A DNA stretch of 32,000 bases, taken from positions 1 through 32,000 of the forward strand of contig NZ_JBNMGD010000012.1 in assembly GCF_050872065.1 (NCBI RefSeq), given 5' to 3'. The notes below the pieces were generated by a model. That model was not told the DNA's origin, made no database searches, and saw only the letters and a list, made by a program, of their open reading frames with translations. A program made the position numbers and the translations under genes. Origin of the DNA: Methanobrevibacter sp. (GTDB taxonomy: Archaea; Methanobacteriota; Methanobacteria; Methanobacteriales; Methanobacteriaceae). Below, in pieces: positions 2,938-25,473 of the stretch. Each line of letters starts with the position of its first letter. The stretch's first letter is position 1.

Positions 2938-2979
2938 CAAAGAATGCGAAAGAAATAATATATTGTGGAGGTAGATAAT

Positions 2980-3234
2980 ATGACATACTTTTTAGATATG
3001 GATTTACATGAACCTTTTGGTATACCAGAAGTTGTTGAAACTACTGCAGATACTCGCACACGTCTAAGCAATAAGACAACTAAGGAATTAGTTGATTATT
3101 TGATTGGGGTGGACAAGAGTATTAAAGCAGGTTTTGAGAATGCGATTTATTTCCAGGAATGGAGTGTTGGATCTGATATTCTACGTAAGCGTGGTTATGA
3201 AATTCATGGACCATCTGATATTTATAATTTATAG
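2980..3234 (+). CDS. Hypothetical protein (84 aa) in the compositionally foreign block
   Basis: ATG 2980 is preceded by GGAGGT at a 7-nt spacing (track ORF starts at GTG 2965). G+C is much higher than the surroundings. No family recognised. Confidence 0.6.
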   Translation: MTYFLDMDLHEPFGIPEVVETTADTRTRLSNKTTKELVDYLIGVDKSIKAGFENAIYFQEWSVGSDILRKRGYEIHGPSDIYNL

Positions 3235-3247
3235 GAGGTAGATATAA

Positions 3248-3931
3248 GTGGTTTTATTAGAATTGTTAGGTGTAGCTTTAGGTGCTTCTTTAGTTAATGG
3301 CATGGCTAAGAAATCAAGTATGAAAGCAAATCCGCAATTAGATGTTAAGCAATTTGATGCTGATTGTGCTAGATATAGTGTGATCGGTCAAGACATCATG
3401 GATGTTGCTGCTCGTTGTGGTGTAAAACCGAATAAATACGGTGTGTTGCCAGAAGATGGGTACAAGCATTGCATGGGATATGTCACTCAGTATGTCAATC
3501 ATCCTGACGATGTTGAATTATTCAAACGTGATTGGTTATTGACTGTTGAACAACAACTCAAAGCTAAATCAAATCTGATGATTCGTAAGTATTGGGATGA
3601 TTATCAGCATCAGTATAATGGTTACTTGAACAACAAAGAGTATTGGACTTCTGGACCGGAGATTGTACTGGAGTTTAAGCACTGGCATGGTTTGCCAAAA
3701 GATCAGCATTTGAAACGCTTAAAAGATATTCAAACTAAAACATTTTGGGGTGAATTATGTTTGCAAGATCCAATCTTACGCAAGAATCCACGCATTAATG
3801 ATTCATACATTGAAGTATGGGTAATGAGAGGTGGTAAACATGACAAACAAGGCAATTGGGTAACACATAATGCTTGGGAAATGACATATGAGATTTGCTG
3901 TGGTGTGTGTGGCTATGACGCAATGTTATAG
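3248..3931 (+). CDS. Hypothetical protein (227 aa) in the compositionally foreign block
   Basis: GTG start preceded by AGGAGGT. Hydrophobic N-terminus (LLELLGVALGASLV) and Cys-rich C-terminus (CCGVCGYD). About 42% G+C by hand count of lines 3361-3480 and 3661-3720. No family recognised. Confidence 0.7.
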   Translation: MVLLELLGVALGASLVNGMAKKSSMKANPQLDVKQFDADCARYSVIGQDIMDVAARCGVKPNKYGVLPEDGYKHCMGYVTQYVNHPDDVELFKRDWLLTVEQQLKAKSNLMIRKYWDDYQHQYNGYLNNKEYWTSGPEIVLEFKHWHGLPKDQHLKRLKDIQTKTFWGELCLQDPILRKNPRINDSYIEVWVMRGGKHDKQGNWVTHNAWEMTYEICCGVCGYDAML

Positions 3932-3955
3932 TCACATTTTTAAAAAGGTGATATT

Positions 3956-4209
3956 ATGGTATTAATTTATAAAACAGAAGATAATGAATATTTTACTTTA
4001 GCAGAATTAGCACAAAAATTTCCAAAAGAGTGGGCTTACTGTTTGAGTTTAAAACGAATATTATCTTAAGTAATATTCAGAACAAAACTTTGGGAAACAG
4101 ATCCAATTGCCTATTATGAATGGAAACGTGAGTGTATTGAACTGAATATGTTACCTGATTTTTTTGGTACTCGTGATAATCCTATTCCTATTGATGAATC
4201 TAAATTATA
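3956..4209 (+). pseudogene. Small ORF split by repeat copy R2
   Basis: ATG 3956 (MVLIYKTEDNEYFTLAELAQKFPKEWAYCL) runs into R2 and stops at the TAA inside the repeat. The same reading frame reopens right after R2 (KLWETDPIAYYEWKRECIELNMLPDFFGTRDNPIPIDESKL) and ends at TAA 4207-4209. Confidence 0.45.
4047..4083 (+). repeat. CRISPR-type repeat R2 (perfect)
   Basis: Identical 37-mer, same orientation as R1. Confidence 0.9.
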
Positions 4210-4229: not shown

Positions 4230-4266
4230 GTTCTGAATATTACTTAAGATAATATTCGTTTTAAAC
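4230..4266 (-). repeat. CRISPR-type repeat R3 (perfect, inverted)
   Basis: Exact reverse complement of the 37-mer, 146 bp from R2. Confidence 0.9.
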
Positions 4267-4306
4267 GTAATAAAAATATGTATGTTAAGGATTGGAGTGA
4301 AAACAA

Positions 4307-5419
4307 ATGGTGGAGAAAAAACTCAAAAAGTCAGATGAAAGATTTGGTCTTGAATTTGAAGTTAAGAAAAATACAAAGAATGCAAACCGTATCGGATTCA
4401 GTAATACATTATTTGATGTTGGTGAAAAAGTCTATGTTCTGTCAGAAGAGCAGCACTATGATATTATAAAACAGATAGATCAGGTTGATGAATACAAAGA
4501 AAGAATAGCTGAACTTGAAACTGAAATAGCTAATGGATTAACAGACAATAATCTTGAAAATGAACTTCAGGAAAAAGATCAAATGATTAACACTCTGAAA
4601 GATAGGGTTGATTCACTTGGAAAAGAACTTGAATCAAATAAATCAGAAGTTAAAGTCCATGATAAAGATGAAATGGAAGAGTTAAAAGAACAGCTTAAAA
4701 GTTCACAGTCTCAGGAAGCTTATTGGAAAAATGCTTATGAAAATCTGATTGATACATCTGATGAATTATCTGCCAGAAATGAATCCCTCATTAAAGAAAA
4801 TGAAAAACTAAGAAACGATAACAATAACATTAACGAAACCAACAAATTGTTAAATGACAATATGATGGGATTAAACGATAACTATAAAGAAACAAAAGAC
4901 GAACTCCAGTCCAATTTTGAAGAAAAGGAAAATGAATTAAAAGAAACCATTGAAAAACAACAATCTCATATAGATGAATTAAATGATAAATTACAATCCT
5001 TATCCAGTCTTAAAGAATATATTCCACCAAAAGAACATTATGAAGCACTTGAGGAATTGAAAGATAAAATAAAAGAAGTTGAAACAGAATTAAACAAAGC
5101 CAATGCTGAAATCAATCTTAAACTATCCAATCAGAAATCTGAACTGGAAATAAAACACACTGAAGAAAAAGCACAAATGCTAATAGCTTACAATCAAGAG
5201 CTTAACAATAACAAATTAAAATATAATGAACTAGCAAAAGATTATAATCATTTACTTGGAGATGCTAATTCATTATCAAGAATAAACACTTTCTTTAATG
5301 GGAAACATAAACTAATTGTTAAAGATAAAGAACCTGTGGAACTTGAAGAGATAGAGGTGGAAAAAGAACCAACAGAAACAATAGAATATGTTCCCAAAGA
5401 CAAAGTAACATTAATATGA
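4307..5419 (+). CDS. Coiled-coil protein (370 aa), function unknown
   Basis: GGAGTGA RBS before the ATG. Long E/K/N/L-rich heptad-like stretches (ELETEIANG..., LKEQLKSSQ..., ELNDKLQSL...). The last 82 nt are duplicated at 6949-7030. Confidence 0.75.
   Translation: MVEKKLKKSDERFGLEFEVKKNTKNANRIGFSNTLFDVGEKVYVLSEEQHYDIIKQIDQVDEYKERIAELETEIANGLTDNNLENELQEKDQMINTLKDRVDSLGKELESNKSEVKVHDKDEMEELKEQLKSSQSQEAYWKNAYENLIDTSDELSARNESLIKENEKLRNDNNNINETNKLLNDNMMGLNDNYKETKDELQSNFEEKENELKETIEKQQSHIDELNDKLQSLSSLKEYIPPKEHYEALEELKDKIKEVETELNKANAEINLKLSNQKSELEIKHTEEKAQMLIAYNQELNNNKLKYNELAKDYNHLLGDANSLSRINTFFNGKHKLIVKDKEPVELEEIEVEKEPTETIEYVPKDKVTLI
5336..5417 (+). repeat. 82-bp direct repeat, left copy (3' end of the coiled-coil gene)
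   Basis: GTGGAACTTGAAGAGATAGAGGTGG...AACATTAATAT matches 6949-7030 at 80 of 82 positions. Confidence 0.9.
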
Positions 5420-5452
5420 ATATTTATTTATTAATATATGAAAGGTGAAACT

Positions 5453-6925
5453 ATGGATAAAGCATCAGAAAAAGTACCTAAAGTATTTATATCTTATTCT
5501 TGGACAAATGAAGAACATATAGAACAAGTTATAGAATTTGCTACATATTTGGTTAATAATCATGTTGATGTCATATTGGATGAATGGGATGCTCCTGAAG
5601 GAATAGACTTAAATTATTTCATGGAAGAAAATGTTAGATCAGAAGACACAGATTTTGTTCTCATAATTTCTGATAAAGAATATGCTCGTAAAGCTAACGA
5701 AAGAACGGGTGGTGTTGGTACTGAAACACAAATTATTAGCAAAAGAGTTTATGAAGATGTAAACCAAACAAAGTTTATCCCAATAGTTTGGCAAAATGAT
5801 GATGATGGAAAACCATGTCTACCAGATTATTTAGCATCTAGAAGATATTTTGATTTAACACCGAAGAATAGATATTCAAATTCTGAAAAAGTATTACGAA
5901 GATTACATGGTATTCCAGAAAATCCAAAACCAAAATTGGGTGAATTTCCTAAGAAATTGTTAGAAACTAATAAATATTATCCCTCGTTAAAAGAAATTAT
6001 CGAAACATTTGATGAAAAAATTGAAAAAAATCCTAAATCAATCAATTCAATTTCAAGACATTTCTTTAAAGATTTTTTACATAATTTTGATGAGTTTAAA
6101 ATAAAATTTCAGACACGAAATGCGTTAGAAATTGCTAATCAATTACACGATAATATTGAAGAGTTTATTCCATTAAGAAATTATTATATTGAATTTATTG
6201 AAAAAATTACTCAAGTTTATGAGTTTGCCCCAGTAGATGGCGATATAATTAAAGAATTATTTGAAAATATTTATTCTAACTATTTTATACCTAAACCTGG
6301 TGAATCTTATATAAGTGAAGATTTTATGAATTTTGACTTTATCGTAAGAGAACTTTTTTTATATACAATTACTATCTCAATTAAAAATGAATATTACCAA
6401 CTTACAAGTAATCTTTTAAACACTCCGTATTTTTTTAATGACCCATATAATTCTAATGATACTAAAACATTTTTAGATTTGGACAAAAGAAGATATGTTC
6501 GTACTGATGAATATTTAACATATTATTGTAAGGAACATAATCTTAATAAATTAACTGGGATGGGACATTTTTTGATTTCAAGAATTCATAAAAATTATGT
6601 AATTGAAGAATTAGTAAACTCAGACATCTTATGTTGTCATATTTCTATAATTAATTTGCAGGATTCCGATGGTTGGTTCCCATTTACATATATTTACAAA
6701 GAAACAAAGTACATGCATTTATATCAAAAATTAATTTCTGAAAGTTATTATAAGAAAGTTAAATGTATCTTTGACATTGAATCTAAAGAAGAATTGGTAA
6801 AGAAGATTAAATATTCTGATGAGTATTTTGGAAAAATGAGATATGGATTTAGAAGTGTTTTCATGAATTATGTTAAACCAATTAGTGAATATATTAATGC
6901 TGATGAAATTGCAAGTAGAAAATAG
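5453..6925 (+). CDS. TIR/SEFIR-like domain protein with a roughly 300-aa uncharacterised C-terminal domain
   Basis: The N-terminus KVFISYSWTNEEH...VDVILDEWD...FVLIISDKEYARKANERTGGVGTETQII...KFIPIVW matches the bacterial TIR-like/SEFIR pattern (FISYSW, DxWD, GGVGxE). ATG 5453 follows an AAAGGTGA RBS; the track start is 5438. Confidence 0.7.
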   Translation: MDKASEKVPKVFISYSWTNEEHIEQVIEFATYLVNNHVDVILDEWDAPEGIDLNYFMEENVRSEDTDFVLIISDKEYARKANERTGGVGTETQIISKRVYEDVNQTKFIPIVWQNDDDGKPCLPDYLASRRYFDLTPKNRYSNSEKVLRRLHGIPENPKPKLGEFPKKLLETNKYYPSLKEIIETFDEKIEKNPKSINSISRHFFKDFLHNFDEFKIKFQTRNALEIANQLHDNIEEFIPLRNYYIEFIEKITQVYEFAPVDGDIIKELFENIYSNYFIPKPGESYISEDFMNFDFIVRELFLYTITISIKNEYYQLTSNLLNTPYFFNDPYNSNDTKTFLDLDKRRYVRTDEYLTYYCKEHNLNKLTGMGHFLISRIHKNYVIEELVNSDILCCHISIINLQDSDGWFPFTYIYKETKYMHLYQKLISESYYKKVKCIFDIESKEELVKKIKYSDEYFGKMRYGFRSVFMNYVKPISEYINADEIASRK

Positions 6926-6948
6926 TTTGTATATACCAATATTTAAAA

Positions 6949-7030
6949 GTGGAACTTGAAGAGATAGATGTGGAAAAAGAACCAACAGAAACAATAGAAT
7001 ATGTTTCCAAAGACAAAGTAACATTAATAT
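6949..7030 (+). repeat. 82-bp direct repeat, right copy
   Basis: 80/82 identical to 5336-5417. It retains the coding frame of the coiled-coil C-terminus (VELEEIDVEKEPTETIEYVSKDKVTLI, then a stop) without an upstream gene body. Confidence 0.9.
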
Positions 7031-7033
7031 AAA

Positions 7034-7564
7034 CTATTCAATTGATTTGAGTATCTCATCCATCAATTCAGAAGTGTTAATGTTATTTTCCTCACCTATT
7101 TCATATTCAATAACAGATCCAACCAGCTTGTCAAGGGATCTATCTTGAATAGCTGAAATGATTCTTAACTTCATGTGAGTTTCAAGATCTACTTTAACAT
7201 TAATTCTTTTTCTGGGATTGCCTTTATTTAATAGCTTATCGTTAATATCATATGTAGAATTGTCTATATCTTTTCTTTTGAACCAGTCATCTTCATTAAC
7301 ATCTTTAAAAGCATCTTCAACATATTTGGCTATATCAATATCTGCAACTTTATCTTCAATAATGGATGTTGCAACTTTTTCTAAACTGGAATCTTTTGAA
7401 GCTGCAATAACTTTTAACTTCTTGTGAGTGTTTGGGAATAGCTTAACAGTTATTTGTTTTCTTTGTGTTTCAATATCGTTAATGTAGTCTTCTTTAACTT
7501 CTTTTATGGCGTTTTCTCTTTGAACTTGTTTTTCAATAAGCTCTTCAATTTTATTGTCTGTCAT
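7034..7564 (-). CDS. Tandem ribbon-helix-helix (CopG/Arc-like) DNA-binding protein
   Basis: Two internal RHH-like units: KQITVKLFPNTHKKLKVIAASKDSSLEKVATSIIEDKV and KRINVKVDLETHMKLRIISAIQDRSLDKLVGSVIEYEI. AGGAGGA RBS upstream. Confidence 0.7.
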   Translation of the reverse strand: MTDNKIEELIEKQVQRENAIKEVKEDYINDIETQRKQITVKLFPNTHKKLKVIAASKDSSLEKVATSIIEDKVADIDIAKYVEDAFKDVNEDDWFKRKDIDNSTYDINDKLLNKGNPRKRINVKVDLETHMKLRIISAIQDRSLDKLVGSVIEYEIGEENNINTSELMDEILKSIE

Positions 7565-7584
7565 GTTATTTTCCTCCTGTATGT

Positions 7585-7619
7585 TTAATAATGTAATTAC
7601 ATTAATAATGTATTTACAT
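7585..7619. promoter_or_regulatory. Tandem palindromic operator-like sites upstream of the RHH gene
   Basis: TTAATAATGTAATTACAT is followed directly by TAATAATGTATTTACAT. The cores are the perfect 12-bp palindrome ATGTAATTACAT (7591-7602) and the near-palindrome ATGTATTTACAT (7608-7619). The sites lie 20-55 bp upstream of the RHH start codon. Confidence 0.5.
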
Positions 7620-7678
7620 AATATATTTTTGTTGATATATAAATATTATGTTATTTTGAAAAATAAGCTGCCCATCTC

Positions 7679-7725
7679 TGATGGACAGGTTGCGACGAGT
7701 GAAACGAGTCGCAATAGGTATATAC
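7679..7725. other. Two adjacent GC-rich hairpins in an AT-rich intergenic region
   Basis: CTGCCCATC-tct-GATGGACAG forms a 9-bp stem with one mismatch. TTGCGAC-gagtgaaacga-GTCGCAA forms a 7-bp stem. Function unknown. Confidence 0.3.
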
Positions 7726-7755
7726 TAAAAAGTTAGTTAATGGTTGGGTTAAAGT

Positions 7756-7773
7756 GACATTAACATTAACGAT
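7756..7773 (+). repeat. Solo left end of the MITE-like element
   Basis: GACATTAACATTAACGAT is identical to the left terminus of copy B (11983-12000). No matching right end follows. Confidence 0.5.
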
Positions 7774-7959
7774 TGATATTTCCTTACTGGAATTATATTT
7801 TCTTACTAGACAGACATCATACTGGCAAATATGATATATTTTTTTTAAAAGTAACTTTATCAGGTTCTTTGAATGATTTTTTACAACTGGTTTTATTAGG
7901 GATTCAAGAGTTTAATTTGTTGATGATTGTTATTAAGTTATTAATTTAATGGAATGGCT

Positions 7960-8072
7960 TTAACATTAACGGCAAGGGTTCTGGAATTGGATTTGGTTTT
8001 CACACTTGGATATATATGCACGAGTTTCAGGAATTAAGTTTTGAAATGGTAATGTTGGATGTTAATGTTAAT
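7960..8072 (+). repeat. MITE-like element, copy A (about 113 bp)
   Basis: Perfect 11-bp terminal inverted repeats: TTAACATTAAC (7960-7970) and GTTAATGTTAA (8061-8071). About 85% identical to copy B by eye. Non-coding. Confidence 0.7.
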
Positions 8073-8128
8073 AGTTTATATCATAACATTTACAAAACTA
8101 GATTTAACAAAATAATGTTTGGATACAT

Positions 8129-9577
8129 ATGTCAAATTATCATTTTTTTAATAGAAAAGAGCTAGAACAAATTCTTGATGAATGCCTTAATAAAACATTA
8201 GGTGAAGTAGATAAGAACAATGTTTTTGAAATAACAAAGACACATCCTAAATATACTGGAATAGCTGGACATGTAATTGAACAATCTGTATTGGGATATC
8301 CTGCAGATACTAGACAAGAACCTGACTTGGATGTTGATGGTGTTAAAACAGAATTAAAAACAACTGGTATTAAATACATAAGAAATAACACTCAATTTGT
8401 TGCTAAAGAACCTATGAGTATTACGGCCGTGTCTCCTCACACTATCGTTAATGAAACATTTGATGATTCTAATTTTTGGCATAAACTAGCTCACTTATTA
8501 TTTGTTTATTATTTATATGACTCACCAACCACTGTTAAAGCTGCAGGATATGCAGACTTTCCAATTAAAGGTTATCAATTTTATGAATTCAATTCAGAGG
8601 ATACAGAAATATTAAAAAATGACTGGACAATAGTTAGAAACTTTATTTCCTGCTTACAGGATAACTATGAGAATTATGAGGATGAATATCCAAGAATATC
8701 TCATGAATTAAGACCTAAGTTGATGTATATTGATACTGCTCCTAAATGGCCACATAATCCAAGATTCAGATTAAAAAGAAGTGTGGTGTCATCTATCATT
8801 CAAGATCACTTTGGTGAATCTTTAGAGCAATTACCTAAAACATATACTTCCTATTCTGAGATTTATGAAACCTGTCATGAGTTGACAGATCAATATAAAA
8901 ATAAACCAATCCATGAACTTGTTGATTTATTGGATATTAAGGTTAATAGAATTAATAAAGCAATTGGAGAACAGATTATTGTTAAAATGTTTGGTGGAAC
9001 ATCAAGGAAAATGCAAAAGATAAAACTATTCAATAGATTAGGAATTATTGGTAAAACATTAACATTAACAGAGAGAGGACTTCGAAAGGAAGATATGAAA
9101 CTGTTTACAATTGATTTTGATGAATTTACTGAAGATATTGAATTTGAAGATTCACAAACCTATGATTACTTTAACAACAATAGATTTTTATCTATAATAT
9201 TCCAAAGGCCTGAAGCTGATGCTGAAATGAAAGATAATATCTTTTTAGGATTTAAAATGCTTACTTTTGAAAGTAGCTTTATTGAAAATGATGTTAAGAA
9301 TACTTGGGAGAGAATTAAGGATTTAATAGTTAATGATAATCTGGAGGATGTTGTTGTCTTAGATAGCCAAGGACAACCTCGTAAAAATAGAAGCGGTAAT
9401 ATAATGAGTGCTCCTAACTTTCCTAAGAGTTCTGAAGGAAATGTATTCGTTAGAGGAACAAGTTCCACATCTGATGAGAAACCATTGACATTGAATGGAA
9501 TAAAAATGTATAGACAACAAATGTGGGTTAAAGGATTGTATATAGTTAATAAGCTCAATGAAGAGGATTATATTTAA
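8129..9577 (+). CDS. Type II restriction endonuclease, Sau3AI/MutH-like (predicted GATC specificity)
   Basis: 482 aa. The N-terminal MutH-like catalytic region is KYTGIAGHVIEQSVLG...EPDLDVDGVKTELKT (D...ELK). Size and the two-domain layout resemble Sau3AI. The gene is paired with a C5-methyltransferase. Confidence 0.7.
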   Translation: MSNYHFFNRKELEQILDECLNKTLGEVDKNNVFEITKTHPKYTGIAGHVIEQSVLGYPADTRQEPDLDVDGVKTELKTTGIKYIRNNTQFVAKEPMSITAVSPHTIVNETFDDSNFWHKLAHLLFVYYLYDSPTTVKAAGYADFPIKGYQFYEFNSEDTEILKNDWTIVRNFISCLQDNYENYEDEYPRISHELRPKLMYIDTAPKWPHNPRFRLKRSVVSSIIQDHFGESLEQLPKTYTSYSEIYETCHELTDQYKNKPIHELVDLLDIKVNRINKAIGEQIIVKMFGGTSRKMQKIKLFNRLGIIGKTLTLTERGLRKEDMKLFTIDFDEFTEDIEFEDSQTYDYFNNNRFLSIIFQRPEADAEMKDNIFLGFKMLTFESSFIENDVKNTWERIKDLIVNDNLEDVVVLDSQGQPRKNRSGNIMSAPNFPKSSEGNVFVRGTSSTSDEKPLTLNGIKMYRQQMWVKGLYIVNKLNEEDYI

Positions 9578-10833
9578 TCTTCTTTTTCAATTACTCCTTC
9601 TAAATATTTTCCTAGCTTTTGAACAATACCTACTACTAAAGCATTACCCATCATAAAATATCTTCTTCTTTCTGTCATAGCTTTAGATTCTATATTAGTC
9701 CAATTATCCGGAAACATTTGTATTCTTTCAGCTTCAACTGGTGTTAATGTTCTATATATGTCTTTTTCTTCATTAACTCCTATGATATGTGAACTTCTGT
9801 TTGTTGTGCTTTCACTTGTGAGCATTGTTCTTGCAGGTGCATCTAAATGATCTGGAAATGCAATAGCTCCTTCTGAATAGCAATAGGTTTCACCATTTGG
9901 TTTTTTCCTTTCAAGTTTTTTAGAACCTTTCAAGTATTTCCATTTCTCAAGTTTTTCACCAGATATAATGTATTTATCATCAAAATTAGTTTCAAGGATG
10001 TCTCCTAATGTTGTAAACTCTCCAGAATAATTTGGTTCAACTTTATATGTATAAACATTACCATTAATCATACATCCTGCATTATAGAAATGAAAATCAA
10101 ACTCATCACTAACGGAAACAATATCTTCATAGTCTTCTTTAGAAATACTTGATTTGCCTTTTTCTAATTGAGTATCTTTAATTGGGAAATTTGTAGCGAA
10201 TATTCCGTTAGTATACACAAGTTGTTCTGCTGAATATTTTATCATGTCTTTAAAGTAATTGGTAGATTTATGATAAGCATAAATGAATACTCTTCTTCTT
10301 TTTTGAGGAAATCCATATTCTGCTGCATTAATTACTCTCCATTCAACTGCATATCCATTATCAAGAAATGACCTTAACATTATTCCAAAGTCACGTCCTC
10401 TTTGAGTTGATGGTGAACGTAATAATCTATCTACATTTTCAAGTAAAACAAATGGAGGTTGTTTGGTTTCAAGGACTTCGGCTATTTCCCACCAGAGAAC
10501 TCCTTTCTTACCTTCAATACCTTTTTCATTGGATAAAGACCTTGCCACTGAATAATCCTGACATGGAAAACCTCCTACAAGTAATGTGTGATTTGGAATG
10601 GTAGTTTTGTCAACTTTGCCAATATCTTCACATACATGATTTTCAGATGCTCCGAATCTTTCAGTATAGCAATCAAATGCTGCCTGTGTTTTAGTGGATG
10701 GTTCCCATTGGTTAGCCCAGATAAAATCCCAATTATCTTTTTCAGTAACTTCATTGCCGTTATATGTTACTTCATTGAATCCACAGCGGAATCCACCAAC
10801 TCCAGCAAATAATTCTACAACTGTCTTATCCAT
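9574..10833 (-). CDS. DNA (cytosine-5)-methyltransferase
   Basis: Motif I ELFAGVGGF, motif IV GGFPCQDYS, motif VI LLENV, motif VIII QKRRRVFI and motif X GNALVV are present. The likely start is MDKTVVELF at 10833 after a GGAGA RBS; the track extends to 10893. The 3' ends overlap the endonuclease gene by 4 nt. Confidence 0.9.
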   Translation of the reverse strand: MDKTVVELFAGVGGFRCGFNEVTYNGNEVTEKDNWDFIWANQWEPSTKTQAAFDCYTERFGASENHVCEDIGKVDKTTIPNHTLLVGGFPCQDYSVARSLSNEKGIEGKKGVLWWEIAEVLETKQPPFVLLENVDRLLRSPSTQRGRDFGIMLRSFLDNGYAVEWRVINAAEYGFPQKRRRVFIYAYHKSTNYFKDMIKYSAEQLVYTNGIFATNFPIKDTQLEKGKSSISKEDYEDIVSVSDEFDFHFYNAGCMINGNVYTYKVEPNYSGEFTTLGDILETNFDDKYIISGEKLEKWKYLKGSKKLERKKPNGETYCYSEGAIAFPDHLDAPARTMLTSESTTNRSSHIIGVNEEKDIYRTLTPVEAERIQMFPDNWTNIESKAMTERRRYFMMGNALVVGIVQKLGKYLEGVIEKED

Positions 10834-10983
10834 AGTAATTTCTCCAATAGTTAATATATTTATAACAAACATATTAATAATTAACGAGATCAATTAAAAA
10901 GTATTAATTAACTTAAAATTAAACTGATATATAAGAATAATTAAATTAAGAATTCAATTCGTTATAGAACATTATAGGAGCAG

Positions 10984-11229
10984 ATGTTTATGGAAAATTT
11001 AGAAAATGTACATGCTATAATTAATACAATAGCTGAAGACCCAAGAGTGGATGTTTCTAAAATAGATGATTATACATTTAATGTTGTTATTAATGGAGAA
11101 CTAATGGATTCATTTGAAAAACTTGGAGAAATCCAAAAGAAGATAAATGATGGTTGTTCTGATGAATATACTCTTAAAACTATTTATGGTGACGGACAAG
11201 ATGCAAAATTAATTTTAGAAAAGAATTAA
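10984..11229 (+). CDS. Hypothetical small acidic protein (81 aa)
   Basis: AGGAG RBS before the ATG. No family recognised. Confidence 0.55.
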   Translation: MFMENLENVHAIINTIAEDPRVDVSKIDDYTFNVVINGELMDSFEKLGEIQKKINDGCSDEYTLKTIYGDGQDAKLILEKN

Positions 11230-11245
11230 ATTCATAGGTCTTACA

Positions 11246-11527
11246 ATGAGTGCTGACATATTTGAAAAGAATAATATAAGATTACCTACTATTGAAGAAG
11301 TTGAGGAAATAGATAATCCTCCAGTTGTAGCACATTTTACCAATGGACTTTGGGATTGGTATGTAATAGCTGGAGAAAAACTTGATGATGATTATCGTTT
11401 ATTAGGATTAGTTAATGGTGATTATAAAGAGATGGGAACATTTACTTTAAAACAATTAGAAAATGTCTCAGCTAAATTAATATCTATTGAAAACATAAGT
11501 CTTCAAGAAGTAAAGTCCAGAATATAA
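11246..11527 (+). CDS. DUF2958-like protein
   Basis: LPTIEEVEEIDNPPVVAHFTNGLWDWYVIAGEKLDDDYRLLGLVNGDYKEMGTFTLKQLE fits the DUF2958 pattern from memory (LP.lys.E...dp.v..kFf.p...WtWY..E....d..fGlV.G.e.ElGyfsL.EL). That family is common on plasmids and conjugative elements. Confidence 0.55.
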   Translation: MSADIFEKNNIRLPTIEEVEEIDNPPVVAHFTNGLWDWYVIAGEKLDDDYRLLGLVNGDYKEMGTFTLKQLENVSAKLISIENISLQEVKSRI

Positions 11528-11528
11528 T

Positions 11529-11906
11529 TTATTTAACATAATCCGTATATTTCATTAATAATCCAATAACTGTAGGTAATGCAGACTCATAACTTGCAAA
11601 TTCTATGTTTTCTTTTTTACCAATATCTATTTCAATTCCTGTAATCCCTTGAATGGTTTCCGTGTTTATACTTTTAATATCTTTGAACTTGATTACTTTT
11701 CTTGGTTTTTGAATTATTAATCTGTCATCTTCGAGAAATAAAGTTGTAGTTATAACTTCTTGTTCTTCTTTAGCTCCGCCTGCAAGAATTCCTGTTGTTA
11801 AAAATAGTGCAGCACTTGCTAAAGCGGTATTGGATTTTTTAGTAATGACCATTTTAATTTCAGCTTTACCTGCTCTTAAAAGTCTTTCAACTTCTGAATC
11901 AACCAT
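11529..11906 (-). CDS. Hypothetical protein (125 aa)
   Basis: AGGTGA RBS, then ATG 11906 (MVDSEVERLL...). The track start at 11915 is the GTG inside the RBS. One central hydrophobic segment. No family recognised. Confidence 0.55.
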   Translation of the reverse strand: MVDSEVERLLRAGKAEIKMVITKKSNTALASAALFLTTGILAGGAKEEQEVITTTLFLEDDRLIIQKPRKVIKFKDIKSINTETIQGITGIEIDIGKKENIEFASYESALPTVIGLLMKYTDYVK

Positions 11907-11982
11907 GATATTCACCTATTAAAATATTGTTTTTATTATTAATTAAATTGATAGATTTATTTTAAGTTGAATTTAATTCATT

Positions 11983-12097
11983 GACATTAACATTAACGAT
12001 AGGGGTTCTATAATTGGATTTGGATTTCGCACTTGGATATAATGTGCAGGGGTTTCGGGAATTAAGTTTTGAATTGGTGATGGTGGATGTTAATGTC
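11983..12097 (+). repeat. MITE-like element, copy B (about 115 bp)
   Basis: Perfect 11-bp terminal inverted repeats: GACATTAACAT (11983-11993) and ATGTTAATGTC (12087-12097). The internal sequence aligns with copy A. Confidence 0.7.
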
Positions 12098-12486
12098 AGC
12101 AGCCAGAATTTTATTGATGTATATATTTATTTTTTTTATTATGTTTGTTCTATATTTTTTTAAATATTTTTTATAATTTGTAATTTAATTTAATATATAA
12201 ATAGTTCGTATCTTTTCTTTTTTTACGTATATTATAAACAGAAATATACGTTTAATTTATATATAAAATAAGAGAATTTTGAAGTTTTTAGTTAAAAATC
12301 CAAAAAAGAACAAGGACATATACATATGTGTATTACAAGTAGTACATTTATCTAAATTAATAAAAAAGTGTATATGTTGCTTTATTATTCATCATATGTT
12401 ACAATTTTGAAAATATTTTTTGGGTGTTAAATGCTTTACAGAAGTTTCTAATATCTTGAATCAATATCAATAGTTATTAATTTAAA

Positions 12487-12605
12487 ACATTAACATTAAC
12501 ATTAACGGAAGGAGTAATGGTTTTGGATTTGGGTTTTAAACTGGGATATATATGAAAGCATTTCTAAAAAGAGTTTTCAAATAGCTATTGGTGAGTATTA
12601 ATGTA
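12487..12605 (+). repeat. MITE-like element, copy C (diverged)
   Basis: Starts ACATTAACATTAACATTAACGG and ends TATTAATGTA. Internal blocks (TTGGATTTGG, GGGATATATATG, GAGTTTTCAA) are colinear with copies A and B, at roughly 65-70% identity by eye. Confidence 0.5.
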
Positions 12606-12754
12606 TCTGTTATTAATCCGCCCCAGTTTACAAATACTTATTCTAAAATATTAGTTCTTGAGCAATTCATTGTCTTTTAGATATTCAATGAATTTCAAAA
12701 TCATTTTTGTTTCACGTTATCCAATAGCAGTTCTGAAAAGTCAGTTACATAATA

Positions 12755-13297
12755 TCATAAAGAAAAATTATATCGTAATGAACGTCCTGCATGTGCTTTA
12801 GATTCTAATTCATCAATTTTCCTATGAATAATTTTTCTTGCATCATCAACACAACAATTTTCATATAAATAATCATTTTCTTCAGGAGTTACTAATTTAT
12901 AATATTCTGAACTATATCCGTATTTTCGGTATATTTCATTTTCTATTGTTTGTAATATTCTTAATTTAAGTTCTAAGAAATAGGTTGTATTTTTTTTATC
13001 ATTTAAATAAATAAAGATTGGAATTGCATTATCACAAACTTCTGTAATTTTAAATAAATTATTGGTTCTTTCGTATATATTACATAATCTTTTATATGTT
13101 GTTGGACTACCAACTTTTTCAGAAACATTTATTTCATATAAGTTTATAGCTCCTTCTAAATCATTCATTTCTTCTAATAGTTTAGCTTTTTTATTTCTTT
13201 CCAATTGTTTTTTTGTTGGTCTAAAATCTGCAAAAACATTAAGAGTATATCTTTTTCTAGCTTTATCATATCTATCTTTTTTATTTGATGTTTCCAT
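12755..13297 (-). CDS. Hypothetical protein (180 aa), possibly TPR-like helical
   Basis: Complete ORF. On the minus strand its ATG lies 2 nt downstream of repeat R4. The AINLYE...YKRLCNIYE pattern is weakly TPR-like. Confidence 0.6.
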   Translation of the reverse strand: METSNKKDRYDKARKRYTLNVFADFRPTKKQLERNKKAKLLEEMNDLEGAINLYEINVSEKVGSPTTYKRLCNIYERTNNLFKITEVCDNAIPIFIYLNDKKNTTYFLELKLRILQTIENEIYRKYGYSSEYYKLVTPEENDYLYENCCVDDARKIIHRKIDELESKAHAGRSLRYNFSL

Positions 13298-13299
13298 AA

Positions 13300-13336
13300 G
13301 TTCTGAATATTACTTAAGATAATATTCGTTTTAAAC
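13300..13336 (-). repeat. CRISPR-type repeat R4 (perfect, inverted)
   Basis: Exact reverse complement of the 37-mer, same orientation as R3. Confidence 0.9.
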
Positions 13337-13718: not shown

Positions 13719-13758
13719 AATAAAGTTAAGGTTTTTATTGCTTCAGTCGTTTCATTGG

Positions 13759-13815: not shown

Positions 13816-14835
13816 CTATTCATTTAATTTAAACCTTAATATATCATCCCAATGCCTTCTTAATACAATTTCACATTCTAGTTTGTCTAAATCATATGCA
13901 ATAGACCATTGAGTATTACTTGCAATATCTTCAGGGTTTGGGTCTTGTGCTGATGCTTTTAATGCTTTCCATACATCAGTTATTCCATTTCCACCATTAT
14001 TTATTACATCCATTATGGAGTCATACCTTTCTTTTCCTTTTCCATATATTCCATTTACTCTATTTGGTTTTACTTTATCAATATACATTCCATAGAAATT
14101 TGTTGCAGCTTTAAATTTAGTAACAACCATTGGTCTTTCTTCTTTTTCAGGATCAAATTCCACTACTCTACCATCCCCAGTCTTATCTGTTATATAGAAA
14201 TGATAATCCCTCCCACTCGTAGATAAAATATCATATTGTTTGATTAATTTTATCGCTTCTTCTGTTGTTTTAGCTTTATCTAAAATTAATCTAATTAATA
14301 CAGTCGTTAATAAAATAGGTTTCCCAGTTTTTTGAATTGTTGGTTTGCTTGTTTGTGTCAATACAGCTATTCCAAGCCCCTTTTCATTAATCCCATCTAA
14401 ACAGATATATGGTGAAATTAAACATAATGCTTTTGTTCCCCTGCTTATTTCGGGATCATTATTATAAATATGATTTAATGCTGCAAATCCTATTGATTTA
14501 TATCCATTTTTAGGATTACATCTTACAAGTAGTGCTGATGAATCAAAAGAGAAATCATAGTTCCTTCCAAATAAAAATTTTTCATCATTTGGCATTGTAA
14601 ATGCTGAACATCCATAATTAGGAATTTCCAATTCCAATTCTACTCCCGGAAGAGCATCTGCGAAGGTTAATTCCATCATTTGTTGATCACTTATCTCTCC
14701 TTCGACAATTGGAGTTACCTTATCGATATTATAATCATATTTTATTTCTATAGAATAAAGATTATAATCATTATATTCCGTAAGTTTTTTAATGGTTTTA
14801 ATTGATTCCATTCTATCTTCTGATAATTCTAACAT
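13816..14835 (-). CDS. Ntn-hydrolase, peptidase C45 / choloylglycine-hydrolase-like
   Basis: NYGCSAFTM (candidate nucleophile Cys after a roughly 74-aa pro-region) followed by FGRNYDF. DKTGDGRVVEF and the overall length fit linear-amide C-N hydrolases. Confidence 0.6.
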   Translation of the reverse strand: MLELSEDRMESIKTIKKLTEYNDYNLYSIEIKYDYNIDKVTPIVEGEISDQQMMELTFADALPGVELELEIPNYGCSAFTMPNDEKFLFGRNYDFSFDSSALLVRCNPKNGYKSIGFAALNHIYNNDPEISRGTKALCLISPYICLDGINEKGLGIAVLTQTSKPTIQKTGKPILLTTVLIRLILDKAKTTEEAIKLIKQYDILSTSGRDYHFYITDKTGDGRVVEFDPEKEERPMVVTKFKAATNFYGMYIDKVKPNRVNGIYGKGKERYDSIMDVINNGGNGITDVWKALKASAQDPNPEDIASNTQWSIAYDLDKLECEIVLRRHWDDILRFKLNE

Positions 14836-15354: not shown

Positions 15355-16624
15355 ATGGTTTCTATTTCTTTATATAATATAATAGACACCCTATTCGTAG
15401 CAGGGATCAGTGCAAATGCATTAACAGCAATTGGAATATTTCCTCCAGTTTATATACTGATTGTATCAATCGGACAAGGTTTAATTACAGGAATGATAAG
15501 CATAATGTCCAATTACATAGGAGCAAATGAAAAAGAAAAAGCAAATAACGTCTTTTGGCATGGGATTTTAATATCCCTTATAATTTCAATAATCTGTTTT
15601 GTATTTGCATTTTTTGGTCTTAAAGAACTATTAATTATCATGGGAGCAGAATCTGTAATAGATCTTACTATGGATTATGCTCAAACAGTATTTGCAGGAA
15701 GTATTATAATAATTTTAAATACTGTAACAATTTCATCTTTAAGAGCAGAAGGAGATATGAAAAAAGCATCAAATATTACCATTTTTGGATTTGTTTTGAA
15801 TATAATTCTTGATTACTTCTTAATATATTTCCTTAATTTTGGAATTTGGGGAGCTGGTGCTGCAACAATACTATCCACATTAATTGGAACAATTGTTGTT
15901 ATATACTGGCTATTTGTTAAGAAAGATACATACCTACAAACTAAATGGTCTCATTTTAAATTTAATATGAAATATATAAAAAATATACTATCTTTAAGTA
16001 TTCCAGCTACTTTAGAAGGGTTTGTAATGAGTTTTCTATTTATATTTGTTAATATGATTTAATAGTAGCTGGTGGAGACATCCATGTTGCAGCATTTACA
16101 GGATCTTAGAAAATACTGTCCTTAGGAATGATACCTGCAATAGGAGTTGAAGCAGCTATTTTAACTATTTCCGAATATTATTTTGGAGCTGAAAATTATA
16201 AGAGAATTAAAAGCATATATAAATATTCAATTATATTTTCCACAACCATCTCAATCATAATAGCTATTATCCTATTTATTTTTGCAAACCAAATTTCATA
16301 CTTATTCACATTATTAAATGGAGATAAATCATTAGGTTACTTAATAGCAAATATCATAAGATTATTTGGAATTTATATAATATTTGTTCCACTTGGTCTT
16401 TCATCAACCGCAATGTTTCAATCAGCACAAAAAGGATTTACTTCATTATCTTTAGTTATTTTAAGAGATCTTTTATTATCAACAATTTTTGCGTATATAT
16501 TGGGAATTCTATTAAACTTCGGAGTTTATGGAATTTATGTAGGAATCATACTTGGATGATTGTATCTTCCATATTTAGTTATTTCTACTTTAATTGGTAT
16601 TTAGATAAACTTAAAAATAATTAA
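15355..16624 (+). pseudogene. MATE-family efflux transporter, disrupted
   Basis: MATE-like TM pattern (YNIIDTLFVAG...ALTAIG...). About 25 N-terminal residues are missing. There are in-frame stops at 16060 and about 16107. The reading frame changes between 15355-16062 and 16128-16559, and again near 16556. Confidence 0.65.
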
Positions 16625-23300: not shown

Positions 23301-23652
23301 TTTATCATCCTCCGTTTAATATAACTTATTTTTATTAATTATTTGATATAAATATTACCATTAAAGCAATGAAAACCTTTAAAAATGCCGCACCTTTGAA
23401 AAAATAGATGTAAGTTATTATGTTATGTTTATTTTTTGAAAATAAGAGTAATAAATAGAATTAATATCATACTAAATCTACTGAGCACATTTATGTTTAA
23501 TTCTTTTATTTCTTTAAAATACTCTTCATTTAAATATAAATTTAGAATTATTTTATTAACTAAAGTATTATTTTCATTTTTAACAAATTTAATATATTTG
23601 TTATGACTAATTTTTATATGAGCATTTAATAAAAAAGTGAGGATAAATTATT

Positions 23653-25473
23653 ATGTCAAGTATGAGTAGTGTTGCAGGATTGTCCAAATATATTAAAACC
23701 TTACCAAAAGCTAAGTTCTCAATAATAGGAATGCTTATTATCAGTTTTATCATTGGAAGTGCATATTATCTAATAGATTTGAATTCAGAAATTGGTATTT
23801 TTGAAAATATTATTGCAGGAGGACTCTTTGGCTTAACTGTATTTGGGATTTCATCCATCATGAGTGGAGCATTGAATCAACAAACAATCAGTATTGTTCA
23901 TGGAATTAACTTGAAAATCAAACACTCAATGTTTTTATCTGCTCTTTCAATGACCATACTTGGAATAATAATAATTATCGGAGGCATAATCTCTCAAATA
24001 TTACAACTAAACCTATTTTTAAACTCAATGCTATTTGGTTGTGTCTTGGTCTATGGATTCAACACATTAGTATTCTGGGCTACCTCCAAAGTTAGATTTA
24101 TGACCGCTGCATTTACTGGTTTAATTCAACCATTACTTATCTTAGCAATGTATACATTAGTTACATTTTTATTCATTGATACAAGCTTTTTAGGTCCTAT
24201 TATTTTACAGATTACCATAAAAGCAATAATTGCTGCAATAATATTCGTTATGGCAATATATGCATTTATCAAAGTTATTGCATCCCCATTTAAGAAGAAT
24301 TTGGGAATAGGTGTTTTGGATTTATTAAGTCTATTCATTGCTCATATGAATGAAGGCTCAAATTCTCTTGAAGGATTATTTGAAAACATGAGTGAGGCTA
24401 TTGATACAATTGTTACATTTGTTAGTTTTAAAACTGAAAAAGGAATAAAAGCATTATTCATATCACCTTCCGTTCATCCAGGACCATTAGGGGACCTTGG
24501 AGGATCAAATATGCCAACCATTTTAGCGAACAAATTTGATCATTTTACAATGGTTGCTCATGGACCATCTACACATGATTTTAACCCAATTGCAGTATCT
24601 GAAATTGATAAAGTTGAAAAATCCGTAAGAAAAGGATTAGAAAAAGTGGAATACTCTTCAAATGCAAGTAAATTTGTAAGGTATGCTTCTCAAAAAGCAA
24701 AAATTGGTGTTCAGTTATTTAATGAAGGTATGGTCATTTTATCAACTTTTGCTCCGGATGCAGTTGATGATATTGAATTTGGTGTGGGACTAACCATGAT
24801 GGCTCAAAGTAGAAACCATTGCAATGTTAAAGACTCAATAATTGTAGATTGTCATAATTCATTTACTCCTGAAAGCGGAGAAATTTTACCTGGAAATTCA
24901 GAAGTTTTCCAAATAATTGAAGTTATTGATACAATCAATCCAAACCAGGAAAAACACGAAGTAAAAGTAGGCTGCTATGAAGATACAATGGAAACTCTGG
25001 ATAAACATGAAGGTATTGGGGATAGTGGTATAAAAACAATGATTGTTGAAGTTGACAATCAAAGAACAGCATATGTTCTTTTTGACTCAAATAATATGGA
25101 AATGGGATTTAGACAAGAAATTATTGATGCTGTCAGTGATTTGGAAATAGATGAAATCGAAGTAATGACAACTGATACTCATACAGTAAATACACTTTCA
25201 AGAGGATATAATCCTGTTGGAATTTCAAAAAGACCAGAAATCATAGAGTATGTTAAAATAAGTATCAAAGAAGCAATAAAAGATTTAGAAAAAGTAGAAG
25301 TTGGAACTGGAACTGAAAAAATTGAAAATCTTAACACATTCGGACCAAAAAATTCAACTGAATTAATTTCAACAATCAGTTCAGTAGTTGCCGTGAGTAA
25401 AATTATAGCTCCAGTATTGTTGATTACAGCATTACTAATTGCATTTATATGGATATTCTTTGGTGGTTTATAA
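23653..25473 (+). CDS. Large membrane protein with a soluble C-terminal domain (DUF2070-like)
   Basis: 606 aa. About 7 N-terminal TM spans, a central soluble region (SPSVHPGPLGDLGGSN...HGPSTHDFNP...TTDTHTVNT) and one C-terminal TM span. The family assignment is from memory and unverified. Confidence 0.6.
   Translation: MSSMSSVAGLSKYIKTLPKAKFSIIGMLIISFIIGSAYYLIDLNSEIGIFENIIAGGLFGLTVFGISSIMSGALNQQTISIVHGINLKIKHSMFLSALSMTILGIIIIIGGIISQILQLNLFLNSMLFGCVLVYGFNTLVFWATSKVRFMTAAFTGLIQPLLILAMYTLVTFLFIDTSFLGPIILQITIKAIIAAIIFVMAIYAFIKVIASPFKKNLGIGVLDLLSLFIAHMNEGSNSLEGLFENMSEAIDTIVTFVSFKTEKGIKALFISPSVHPGPLGDLGGSNMPTILANKFDHFTMVAHGPSTHDFNPIAVSEIDKVEKSVRKGLEKVEYSSNASKFVRYASQKAKIGVQLFNEGMVILSTFAPDAVDDIEFGVGLTMMAQSRNHCNVKDSIIVDCHNSFTPESGEILPGNSEVFQIIEVIDTINPNQEKHEVKVGCYEDTMETLDKHEGIGDSGIKTMIVEVDNQRTAYVLFDSNNMEMGFRQEIIDAVSDLEIDEIEVMTTDTHTVNTLSRGYNPVGISKRPEIIEYVKISIKEAIKDLEKVEVGTGTEKIENLNTFGPKNSTELISTISSVVAVSKIIAPVLLITALLIAFIWIFFGGL

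Follow-up and report, generated by a model that had tools for sequence, protein, structure and literature searches.

We analysed a 32,000-nt stretch of Methanobrevibacter sp. DNA (contig NZ_JBNMGD010000012.1, positions 1 to 32,000; hereafter the window), in which a Sau3AI-type restriction-modification (R-M) module lies between two copies of a short repeat. This repeat belongs to a family, named E here, whose members consist of a core of ~115 nt and a left linker of 45-70 nt. Cassette boundaries coincide with E, one and the same cassette was found at two hot spots, an orthologous site carries a single E in one species and a pair of chimeric copies in another, and the copies are both co-oriented and mosaic. 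We consider E to be probably a cassette-junction element, comparable to an attachment (att) site, of Methanobrevibacter tailed viruses and, through a diverged subfamily, of Methanobrevibacter chromosomes.

Repeat element E and the R-M cassette of the window

Three copies of E are found on the plus strand, i.e. A (7915..8072, with the linker from ~7915 and the core at 7957-8072; nhmmer 87.8 bits), B (11937..12097, linker plus core at 11983-12097; 74.1 bits) and C (12446..12605; 68.9 bits). An earlier sequence-only reading of this DNA had placed A at 7960-8072 and C at 12487-12605, and had listed a solo 18-nt motif; all the repeats that it noted are indeed present at those positions, and the identity between A and B, estimated there at ~85 %, was computed to be 80 %. 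Pairwise identities are lower for A and C (68 %) and for B and C (65 %), A and B being each other's closest relatives. Perfect 11-bp terminal inverted repeats end both copy A (7960-7970 and 8061-8071) and copy B, while copy C begins with (ACATTA)3 and has an imperfect right arm of ~7 bp. The terminal motif is composed of ACATTA/ATTAAC hexamers. Allowing up to two mismatches, ACATTAACATTAAC occurs 17 times in the window for 1.6 expected, i.e. a ~10-fold enrichment, and none of 100 shuffled sequences reached 17. An exact ACATTAACATTAAC also lies at 9056-9069 within the coding sequence of the restriction endonuclease and specifies T-L-T-L-T there.

Each E has two inverted ATTAAC-hexamer arms of 9-15 bp, ACATTAAC(ATTAAC)G and CGTTAATGT(TAAT), ~90 bp apart (length 109-112 nt between arms); the centre between them, GATATATAT, is invariant, and a GTTTTGAATAGCT block there is conserved. 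The geometry is fixed (arm, 37 nt, TATA, ~40 nt, arm) and no conserved open reading frame (ORF) is present. Conservation reaches 45-70 nt beyond the inverted repeat on its left, through AATCAATAGCTA, a T-run and TTTAATGA; on its right there is none. Rumen viruses often have E copies in tandem, ~190 nt apart (L017 6880-6925 and 7080-7100; also L147, L119 and L027, loci being designated by L numbers), and the linker between tandem copies carries an extra inverted arm motif (CAACGTTAATGTTGAA), which gives each left arm a potential partner on either side.

The sequence-only reading had also suggested a structured RNA of ~110 nt. The plus strand of A and B does fold better than shuffled sequences (z = -2.4 and -3.6) and, owing to G-U pairs, is more stable than the minus strand, but this is explained by the inverted arms, and copy C folds no better than shuffles (z = -0.5). 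RNAalifold, applied to 36 copies, recovered only an invariant 9-bp terminal stem with no compensatory change, the proposed inner helices paired in 51-87 % of cells, which is not above shuffles, nor does the structure as a whole exceed them, and no Rfam match was obtained at gathering thresholds nor at E<=1. We therefore regard an RNA role as very improbable. An extension of the terminal stem and an inner hairpin were also tried and rejected. As the arms are invariant in sequence without covariation, they point instead to recognition of the DNA by a protein.

A candidate for such a protein is encoded next to the repeats. Gene c4 (7034..7564, minus strand) is predicted to encode a double ribbon-helix-helix (RHH, Arc-like) protein: its Pfam RHH match is sub-threshold, its L150 orthologue is assigned by PHROG to Arc-like repressors or transcriptional regulators, and it is a viral backbone gene in 6 loci. 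The solo (ACATTA)2AC site GACATTAACATTAACGAT (7756..7773, plus strand), identical to the first 18 nt of B, lies in the upstream region of c4, which makes the c4 protein the obvious candidate for an accessory protein, and we infer that it may bind ATTAAC hexamers. The solo site, previously interpreted as the left end of a copy, is kept at the same position in L017, L125 and L129 and is degenerate in L134, lying 120-200 nt upstream of E in related viruses; because it is conserved in place, it is a site in its own right and not a broken copy. A GC-rich hairpin (TTGCGAC...GTCGCAA, 7690-7716), conserved in L017, L125 and L129, is found ~40 nt before it.

Between A and B, the gene content is as described in the earlier reading, i.e. 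a Sau3AI/MutH-like endonuclease, a methyltransferase and three small ORFs. The type II restriction endonuclease of the Sau3AI/MutH family (8129..9577, plus strand) was recognised by Pfam MutH and PADLOC REase_II (1e-133), the NCBIfam Sau3AI family scoring below cut-off. The cytosine-C5 DNA methyltransferase (9574..10833, minus strand; Pfam DNA_methylase 1e-64, PADLOC MTase_II 8e-170) has an identical counterpart, flanked by the same neighbours, in 10 further metagenome contigs. The small genes c31 (10984-11229) and c32 (11246-11527), together spanning 10984..11527 on the plus strand, accompany the R-M genes in L130, a goat-gut virus; c32 has only a weak DUF2958 match. The last ORF, c39 (11529..11915, minus strand), is a fragment absent from L130, 37 % identical to the C-terminal part of a 311-aa protein which, in L131, forms a single-gene cassette bracketed by E. 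The module of the window thus looks like an R-M cassette fused to the remnant of a second cassette, the intervening E having been lost. In L131, the ORF that follows the second E begins with MDAGKQNLLNFLGQNQQLSIPIYQRKYSW, which resembles the DUF262 signature and is presumably a DUF262 gene. Exact-protein look-ups of the restriction endonuclease, a 108-aa ORF and the bSEFIR protein described below returned no match. Between B and C lies an AT-rich spacer of ~350 bp (12098..12445), with no ORF of at least 60 aa and no similarity to any fetched locus.

Family size, viral setting and cassette boundaries

A profile built from the first copies retrieved 64 non-overlapping E copies; their 40 loci belong to over 30 genomes, and both length and blocks are conserved among them. 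The carriers are nearly all contigs of Methanobrevibacter metagenome-assembled genomes (MAGs), plus one complete virus, vir323. A looser pattern common to all copies (TTAACATTAACG-N37-GATATA) gave ~36 true copies; they come from one viral contig and from over 30 Methanobrevibacter MAGs, the majority of these being of ruminant origin. The strict core pattern had no match in GTDB representatives, a second pattern gave chance matches only (L017 and L027 excepted), and the strict patterns found zero E copies in the representative MAG of the same species. Three carrier contigs labelled as Bacilli or Erysipelotrichaceae encode genes of Methanobrevibacter viruses and were taken to be mis-binned. The low G+C content of the window (28.6 %) and the mutual closeness of A and B might suggest that a segment was duplicated locally, or that the copies resemble each other by chance in AT-rich DNA. 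The number of copies, loci and genomes, together with the ~10-fold excess of the motif over shuffles, refutes this explanation, and the proposal of a multi-copy family with terminal inverted repeats is borne out.

Main-family copies lie in intergenic DNA of tailed viruses or proviruses, at the edges of variable cargo. Their loci carry genes for the terminase TerL, an HK97-like major capsid protein, the pseudomurein endoisopeptidase Pei (an endolysin), an integrase and a GIY-YIG homing endonuclease. Clustering of the ORFs around the copies revealed a common backbone, i.e. TerL, a 270-aa protein, two small proteins, a winged helix-turn-helix (wHTH) protein, E, variable cargo, E, a 92-aa protein, Pei, the coiled-coil protein c5, the RHH protein c4, E and the capsid genes; a tyrosine integrase and a GIY-YIG homing endonuclease are encoded in other loci. 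Two hot spots can be distinguished along it, the first after the wHTH gene and the second after the RHH gene. The positions of E relative to the backbone genes are conserved across viruses, and copies are co-oriented in all 15 loci having at least two strong copies. The complete circular 34-kb genome of vir323 (Caudoviricetes sp., BK063679, host Methanobacteriales) holds two full copies and one or two that are degenerate, all of them on the same strand, as well as several solo hexamer sites. E adjoins a tyrosine integrase gene in L146, L137, L114 and L151. With respect to neighbouring genes, its orientation varies, since copies are found upstream of plus-strand genes, at the 3' ends of convergent genes or overlapping the last codons of the viral gene c8. 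In addition to this main family, a diverged subfamily is dispersed in ordinary chromosomal intergenic DNA. It shares the ends and spacing but has a different interior, with a palindromic GGATATATATCC centre; its members are nearly symmetric, hence their orientation is not callable.

[quoted passage not shown] The size (~115 bp), AT-richness, non-coding nature and terminal inverted repeats of E, its multiple copies in many genomes and the chromosomal subfamily that shares its termini while differing inside would all suit a MITE. However, the copies lack target-site duplications (the signal remained within the shuffled range over 51 copies, for k = 2-8 and two boundary definitions), they are co-oriented in 15 of 15 multi-copy loci and their positions along the backbone are conserved. 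Conservation outside the terminal repeats is restricted to the left side, and the reference MAG of the same species has zero copies. Scanning of window ORFs revealed no transposase, in agreement with the sequence-only reading, and none was seen in the 40 loci (<=8 kb each); an insertion sequence with the same termini was not found there either. Transposase-type mobility, as initially put forward, is thus improbable. A replication origin, suggested by inverted boxes around an AT-rich centre, was considered as well and rejected, given the several co-oriented copies per virus and the copies between housekeeping genes; a relationship of E to CRISPR leaders or repeats was likewise discarded.

The boundaries of the variable cargo were examined by aligning loci with one another. 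The window aligns from 7941 to 11485 with L130 (3875-7410) at 82.6 % identity, from the left edge of E to the fourth gene, copy A being contiguous with the left E and the cassette of L130. E, the R-M genes and the two small genes thus form one unit; the view that A and B delimit the R-M module as a moved unit is thereby upheld, the same genes being bracketed by E elsewhere. In L130 this cassette follows the wHTH gene (hot spot 1); in the window it follows the RHH gene (hot spot 2) and lies beside copy C. The best matches of copy C are the E copies located after c4 in L125, L017, L134, L122 and L129, and C is the resident copy of this viral hot spot. Homology between L150 and L130 stops where the left E ends and starts anew where the right E begins; in between, L150 carries an endonuclease/exonuclease/phosphatase-family (EEP) nuclease gene and L130 the R-M genes. 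The same pattern was observed between L150 and L153 and between L130 and L153, homology of related viruses breaking within E or at its edge. This one hot spot is filled by at least nine distinct sets of cargo, and in L126 it holds a single E and no cargo.

Proposed cassette exchange at E

The comparison of an empty and a filled site came from the diverged chromosomal subfamily. In L123, one E lies between the genes for ThiC and a PAN-like AAA ATPase. The orthologous region of another species, L132, contains E1, an insert of 1.43 kb with two ORFs, and E2, in direct orientation, and the single E of L123 aligns to both. In a three-way alignment, E1 matches the left flank and left part of L123 and differs at its right end, and E2 matches the right part and right flank and differs in its left flank and left part. 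E1 and E2 are reciprocal chimeras, i.e. the pattern by which attB and attP yield attL and attR, as expected from the sequences if a resident site underwent a reciprocal crossover with a site carried on a circular molecule.

Mosaicism was also detected among 36 main-family copies, whose left-part and right-part identities are uncorrelated (r=0.15), with discordant pairs such as 95 %/59 % and 59 %/100 %. A breakpoint scan based on z-scores gave five significant switch points. Every one of them lies at alignment column 102-103, immediately behind GAATAGCTGA and ~8 nt short of the right arm. In E1 of L132, divergence from the resident sequence likewise starts a few nt before the right arm. The clustering of switch points, in a small sample of related lineages, points to a preferred crossover position.

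We propose that a gene cassette carrying one E, in circular form, would recombine with a resident E to give E-cassette-E in direct orientation, and that two different E copies flanking a hot spot would permit swaps of whole cassettes between viruses. In the window, the Sau3AI-type R-M cassette and the remnant of a second cassette would have been inserted beside the resident copy C, in the hot spot located after the viral RHH gene. An RHH or wHTH accessory protein bound to the hexamer arms could assist the exchange, and strand exchange could be performed by a viral tyrosine integrase or by a host enzyme of the XerA type. E likely supplies transcription signals too, judging from its linker T-run, its central TATA-like box and the arm that abuts the cassette's own TATA box. 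A catalysed, site-specific exchange appears to us slightly better supported than general homologous recombination.

The latter is a serious alternative, on short conserved blocks and in the manner of the promoter-early stem-loops (PeSLs) of T4-type phages. It would go along with a solely regulatory E, made of an operator, a TATA box, a second operator and a T-run terminator placed at operon borders, with which cassette borders would coincide passively. The invariant GATATATAT centre and fixed geometry fit such a role, as do the T-run of the left linker, the central TATATATA and the right arm abutting the TTTATATC box 50 nt before the restriction endonuclease gene. The solo ATTAAC-hexamer site upstream of the RHH gene resembles an autoregulatory operator, co-orientation suits a polar transcription signal, and PeSLs provide a precedent (PMC2839356, PMC4122927). 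On the other side, E occurs in every orientation relative to its neighbour genes, the reciprocal chimeras of L132 and the switch points at one column suggest a defined crossover, and copies sharing 65-80 % identity with exact runs of at most 16 bp are a poor substrate for homologous recombination. On balance we judge a purely regulatory E rather unlikely.

Several points nevertheless weigh against the junction-element interpretation. The cassettes encode no recombinase, vir323 is without an annotated integrase and the island of the window has none. A single crossover does not yield three E copies and an unexplained spacer of 350 bp, as found in the window. The fixed crossover position is documented in five related pairs only and is not exactly placeable in L132, and the conserved blocks of 10-16 bp could permit rare homologous recombination, in which case E would be PeSL-like and not att-like. 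The promoter, terminator and protein-binding roles assigned to E come from inspection of its sequence only. Finally, most loci are pieces of MAG contigs of 8 kb or less, some of them mis-binned, and genome-wide copy numbers and provirus ends lie outside them.

A more ambitious version, in which E is the site of a dedicated cassette-capture system common to Methanobrevibacter chromosomes and tailed viruses, can be envisaged, though we hold it only tentatively. Circles bearing mostly defence genes and one E each would integrate site-specifically at any resident E, with RHH or wHTH proteins on the arms and a fixed exchange point next to the right arm. If so, archaea would possess an equivalent of integrons or pdif modules, assembled from unrelated components.

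Among known systems, the closest functional analogue of E appears to be the PeSL (Arbiol et al. 2010, PMC2839356; Comeau et al. 2014, PMC4122927). Like E, PeSLs are short, multi-copy, co-oriented intergenic repeats of hyperplastic regions in tailed-virus genomes, the indels or replacements of accessory genes end at the repeats (for E, in L150/L130, L150/L153, L130/L153 and window/L130), and they may also carry transcription signals, as sequence features of E suggest. PeSLs differ in consisting of sigma-70 promoters and terminator hairpins in bacterial phages and in acting by homologous recombination, with mini-circles shown experimentally, whereas E belongs to archaeal viruses and host chromosomes, has inverted hexamer arms 90 bp apart and has its switch points at one position.

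Sites of specific recombination offer a second comparison, i.e. the att sites of tyrosine integrases and the Xer-site-bounded modules known as integrative mobile elements exploiting Xer (IMEX) and as pdif modules of Acinetobacter plasmids. As with E, one site is present when empty and two direct, reciprocally chimeric sites surround an insert, and defence or accessory modules are bounded by recombination sites whose recombinase acts in trans. Unlike these sites, which have a core of 28-30 bp, E is ~115 nt long with distant arms, and its recombinase and overlap sequence are putative. Integron cassettes resemble E in forming co-oriented arrays with one imperfectly palindromic site (attC) each, often with defence cargo, and in implying a circular intermediate. 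However, no IntI, attI or Pc platform was found in any locus and the cassettes carry their own promoters; moreover, attC conserves structure whereas E conserves sequence, without covariation above shuffles. MITEs are similar in size, terminal inverted repeats, non-coding nature and copy number, and E departs from them by its lack of target-site duplications, of random orientation and, in the window and loci scanned, of a partner insertion sequence, and by its conserved positions. The stoperators of cluster A mycobacteriophages, which are single sites of 13 bp and play no part in cassette exchange, share with E many oriented intergenic copies of a short asymmetric protein-binding site in a temperate virus, E being a composite of ~115 nt.

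Viruses of gut methanogens are known to have hypervariable regions for defence and counter-defence (PMC11375127); the article on MSTV1, a virus of M. smithii, describes such defence regions and no junction repeats (PMC11375127). No mechanism is known so far for the exchange of defence-region genes in these viruses, and our literature searches (Methanobrevibacter MITEs, repeats in its proviruses) found no description of E and nothing similar for archaea. Once defined, a junction element would provide a sequence handle on cassette hot spots and on their cargo (R-M genes, the EEP nuclease, the probable DUF262 gene and many uncharacterised genes) in rumen and gut methanogens and their viruses, and would open the horizontal transfer of defence genes between viruses and chromosomes to direct tests. 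It might also serve as a docking site for genetic tools in Methanobrevibacter, a genus that is hard to manipulate genetically.

The virus-derived island and its CRISPR-type repeats

The window encodes archaeal housekeeping proteins (DUF2070, NFACT, polyferredoxin) and its right half is 97-99 % identical to the Methanobrevibacter sp. MAG SARD03_bin.040; proteins identical to those of the window occur in many gut metagenome assemblies. The R-M cassette and the three E copies are part of a virus-derived island of ~9 kb (4267-13299) bounded by exact 37-nt repeats of CRISPR type. Only a piece of a virus is present, i.e. c5, c4 and the E copies, with 75-76 % nucleotide identity to rumen viruses. The left border is a repeat at 4230..4266 (minus strand), an exact copy of the one at 2901, and viral homology starts at 4267. 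The right border is another exact copy (13300..13336, minus strand); synteny with the reference MAG of the species starts at 13297, and the short-read contigs of other strains break at this repeat. That the segment lies between CRISPR-type repeats near cas2-cas1 accounts for a virus fragment with E in a chromosome whose reference genome lacks E.

The viral gene c5 (4307..5419, plus strand), which encodes a coiled-coil protein and stands beside the Pei endolysin gene in viruses, is 75-76 % identical at the nucleotide level to its counterparts in L150, L017, L125 and L134. In viruses, an array of TTGCAAT/ATTGCAA repeats precedes c5 (L150 6150-6215; on the reverse complement, L017 ~2470-2560 and L154 ~23590-23680); the array is missing from the window, where the CRISPR-type repeat abuts viral sequence 40 nt before the start of c5. 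A TIR/SEFIR-type defence gene, bSEFIR (5438..6925, plus strand; PADLOC bSEFIR 4.9e-89, Pfam SEFIR/TIR_2), lies between c5 and c4 and is absent from related viruses. It is flanked by a 96 %-identical direct duplication of 85 bp of the 3' end of c5 (5336-5420 and 6949-7033), without E, and its mechanism of insertion differs from that which placed the R-M cassette. At the right end of the island, a 180-aa ORF (12755..13297, minus strand) without any family match has its start codon abutting the CRISPR-type repeat and accompanies the island in other samples. Its identification as a diverged c8 was rejected by comparison, the two being unrelated, and IMG/VR held no close relative of this ORF nor of a 227-aa ORF.

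The repeats follow a stand-alone pair of cas2 (1422-1718) and cas1 (1720-2715), identified by TIGR01573 and TIGR00287. A conserved leader and the 37-nt repeat GTTTAAAACGAATATTATCTTAAGTAATATTCAGAAC come next, the first repeat (2901) lying 185 nt after the pair; others are at 4047 and at the two island borders, and degenerate ones at 13757 and 14957. The 'spacers' range from 146 bp to 9 kb and carry whole genes. Similar arrays were examined in L157, L117, L170/L171 and L173. The same-species MAG L157 has different segments of 1.1, 1.7 and 3.5 kb, and L117, from another species, has a homologous repeat with segments of 165, 255, 1070 and 1337 nt, the longest being a viral fragment that starts mid-gene. 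The 99.9 %-identical strains L170 and L171 differ by one extra repeat and a 433-bp insert at the leader-proximal repeat, which is the signature of polarised spacer acquisition. Neither this insert nor window positions 2938-4046 had a match in the phage collection, and no effector cas genes were found near the cas2-cas1 arrays. Gene-sized spacers could result from integration of long fragments by Cas1-Cas2 or, alternatively, from recombination at the repeats; a literature search found no paper on such spacers.

Two further observations concern the DNA to the right of the island. A gene of the choloylglycine-hydrolase/AAT family (13816-14835, minus strand) lies between the two degenerate CRISPR-type repeats and, besides two Methanobrevibacter MAGs, its closest relatives all belong to gut Firmicutes, Coriobacteriia and similar bacteria (~50-57 % identity), which looks like a cross-domain transfer. 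Further right, a MatE efflux gene is split into two parts (15355-16062 and 16128-16559, i.e. 235 + 143 aa), as also seen in L003 and L008. M. thaueri (L173) has an unbroken version of 462 aa, and the split form is probably a pseudogene.

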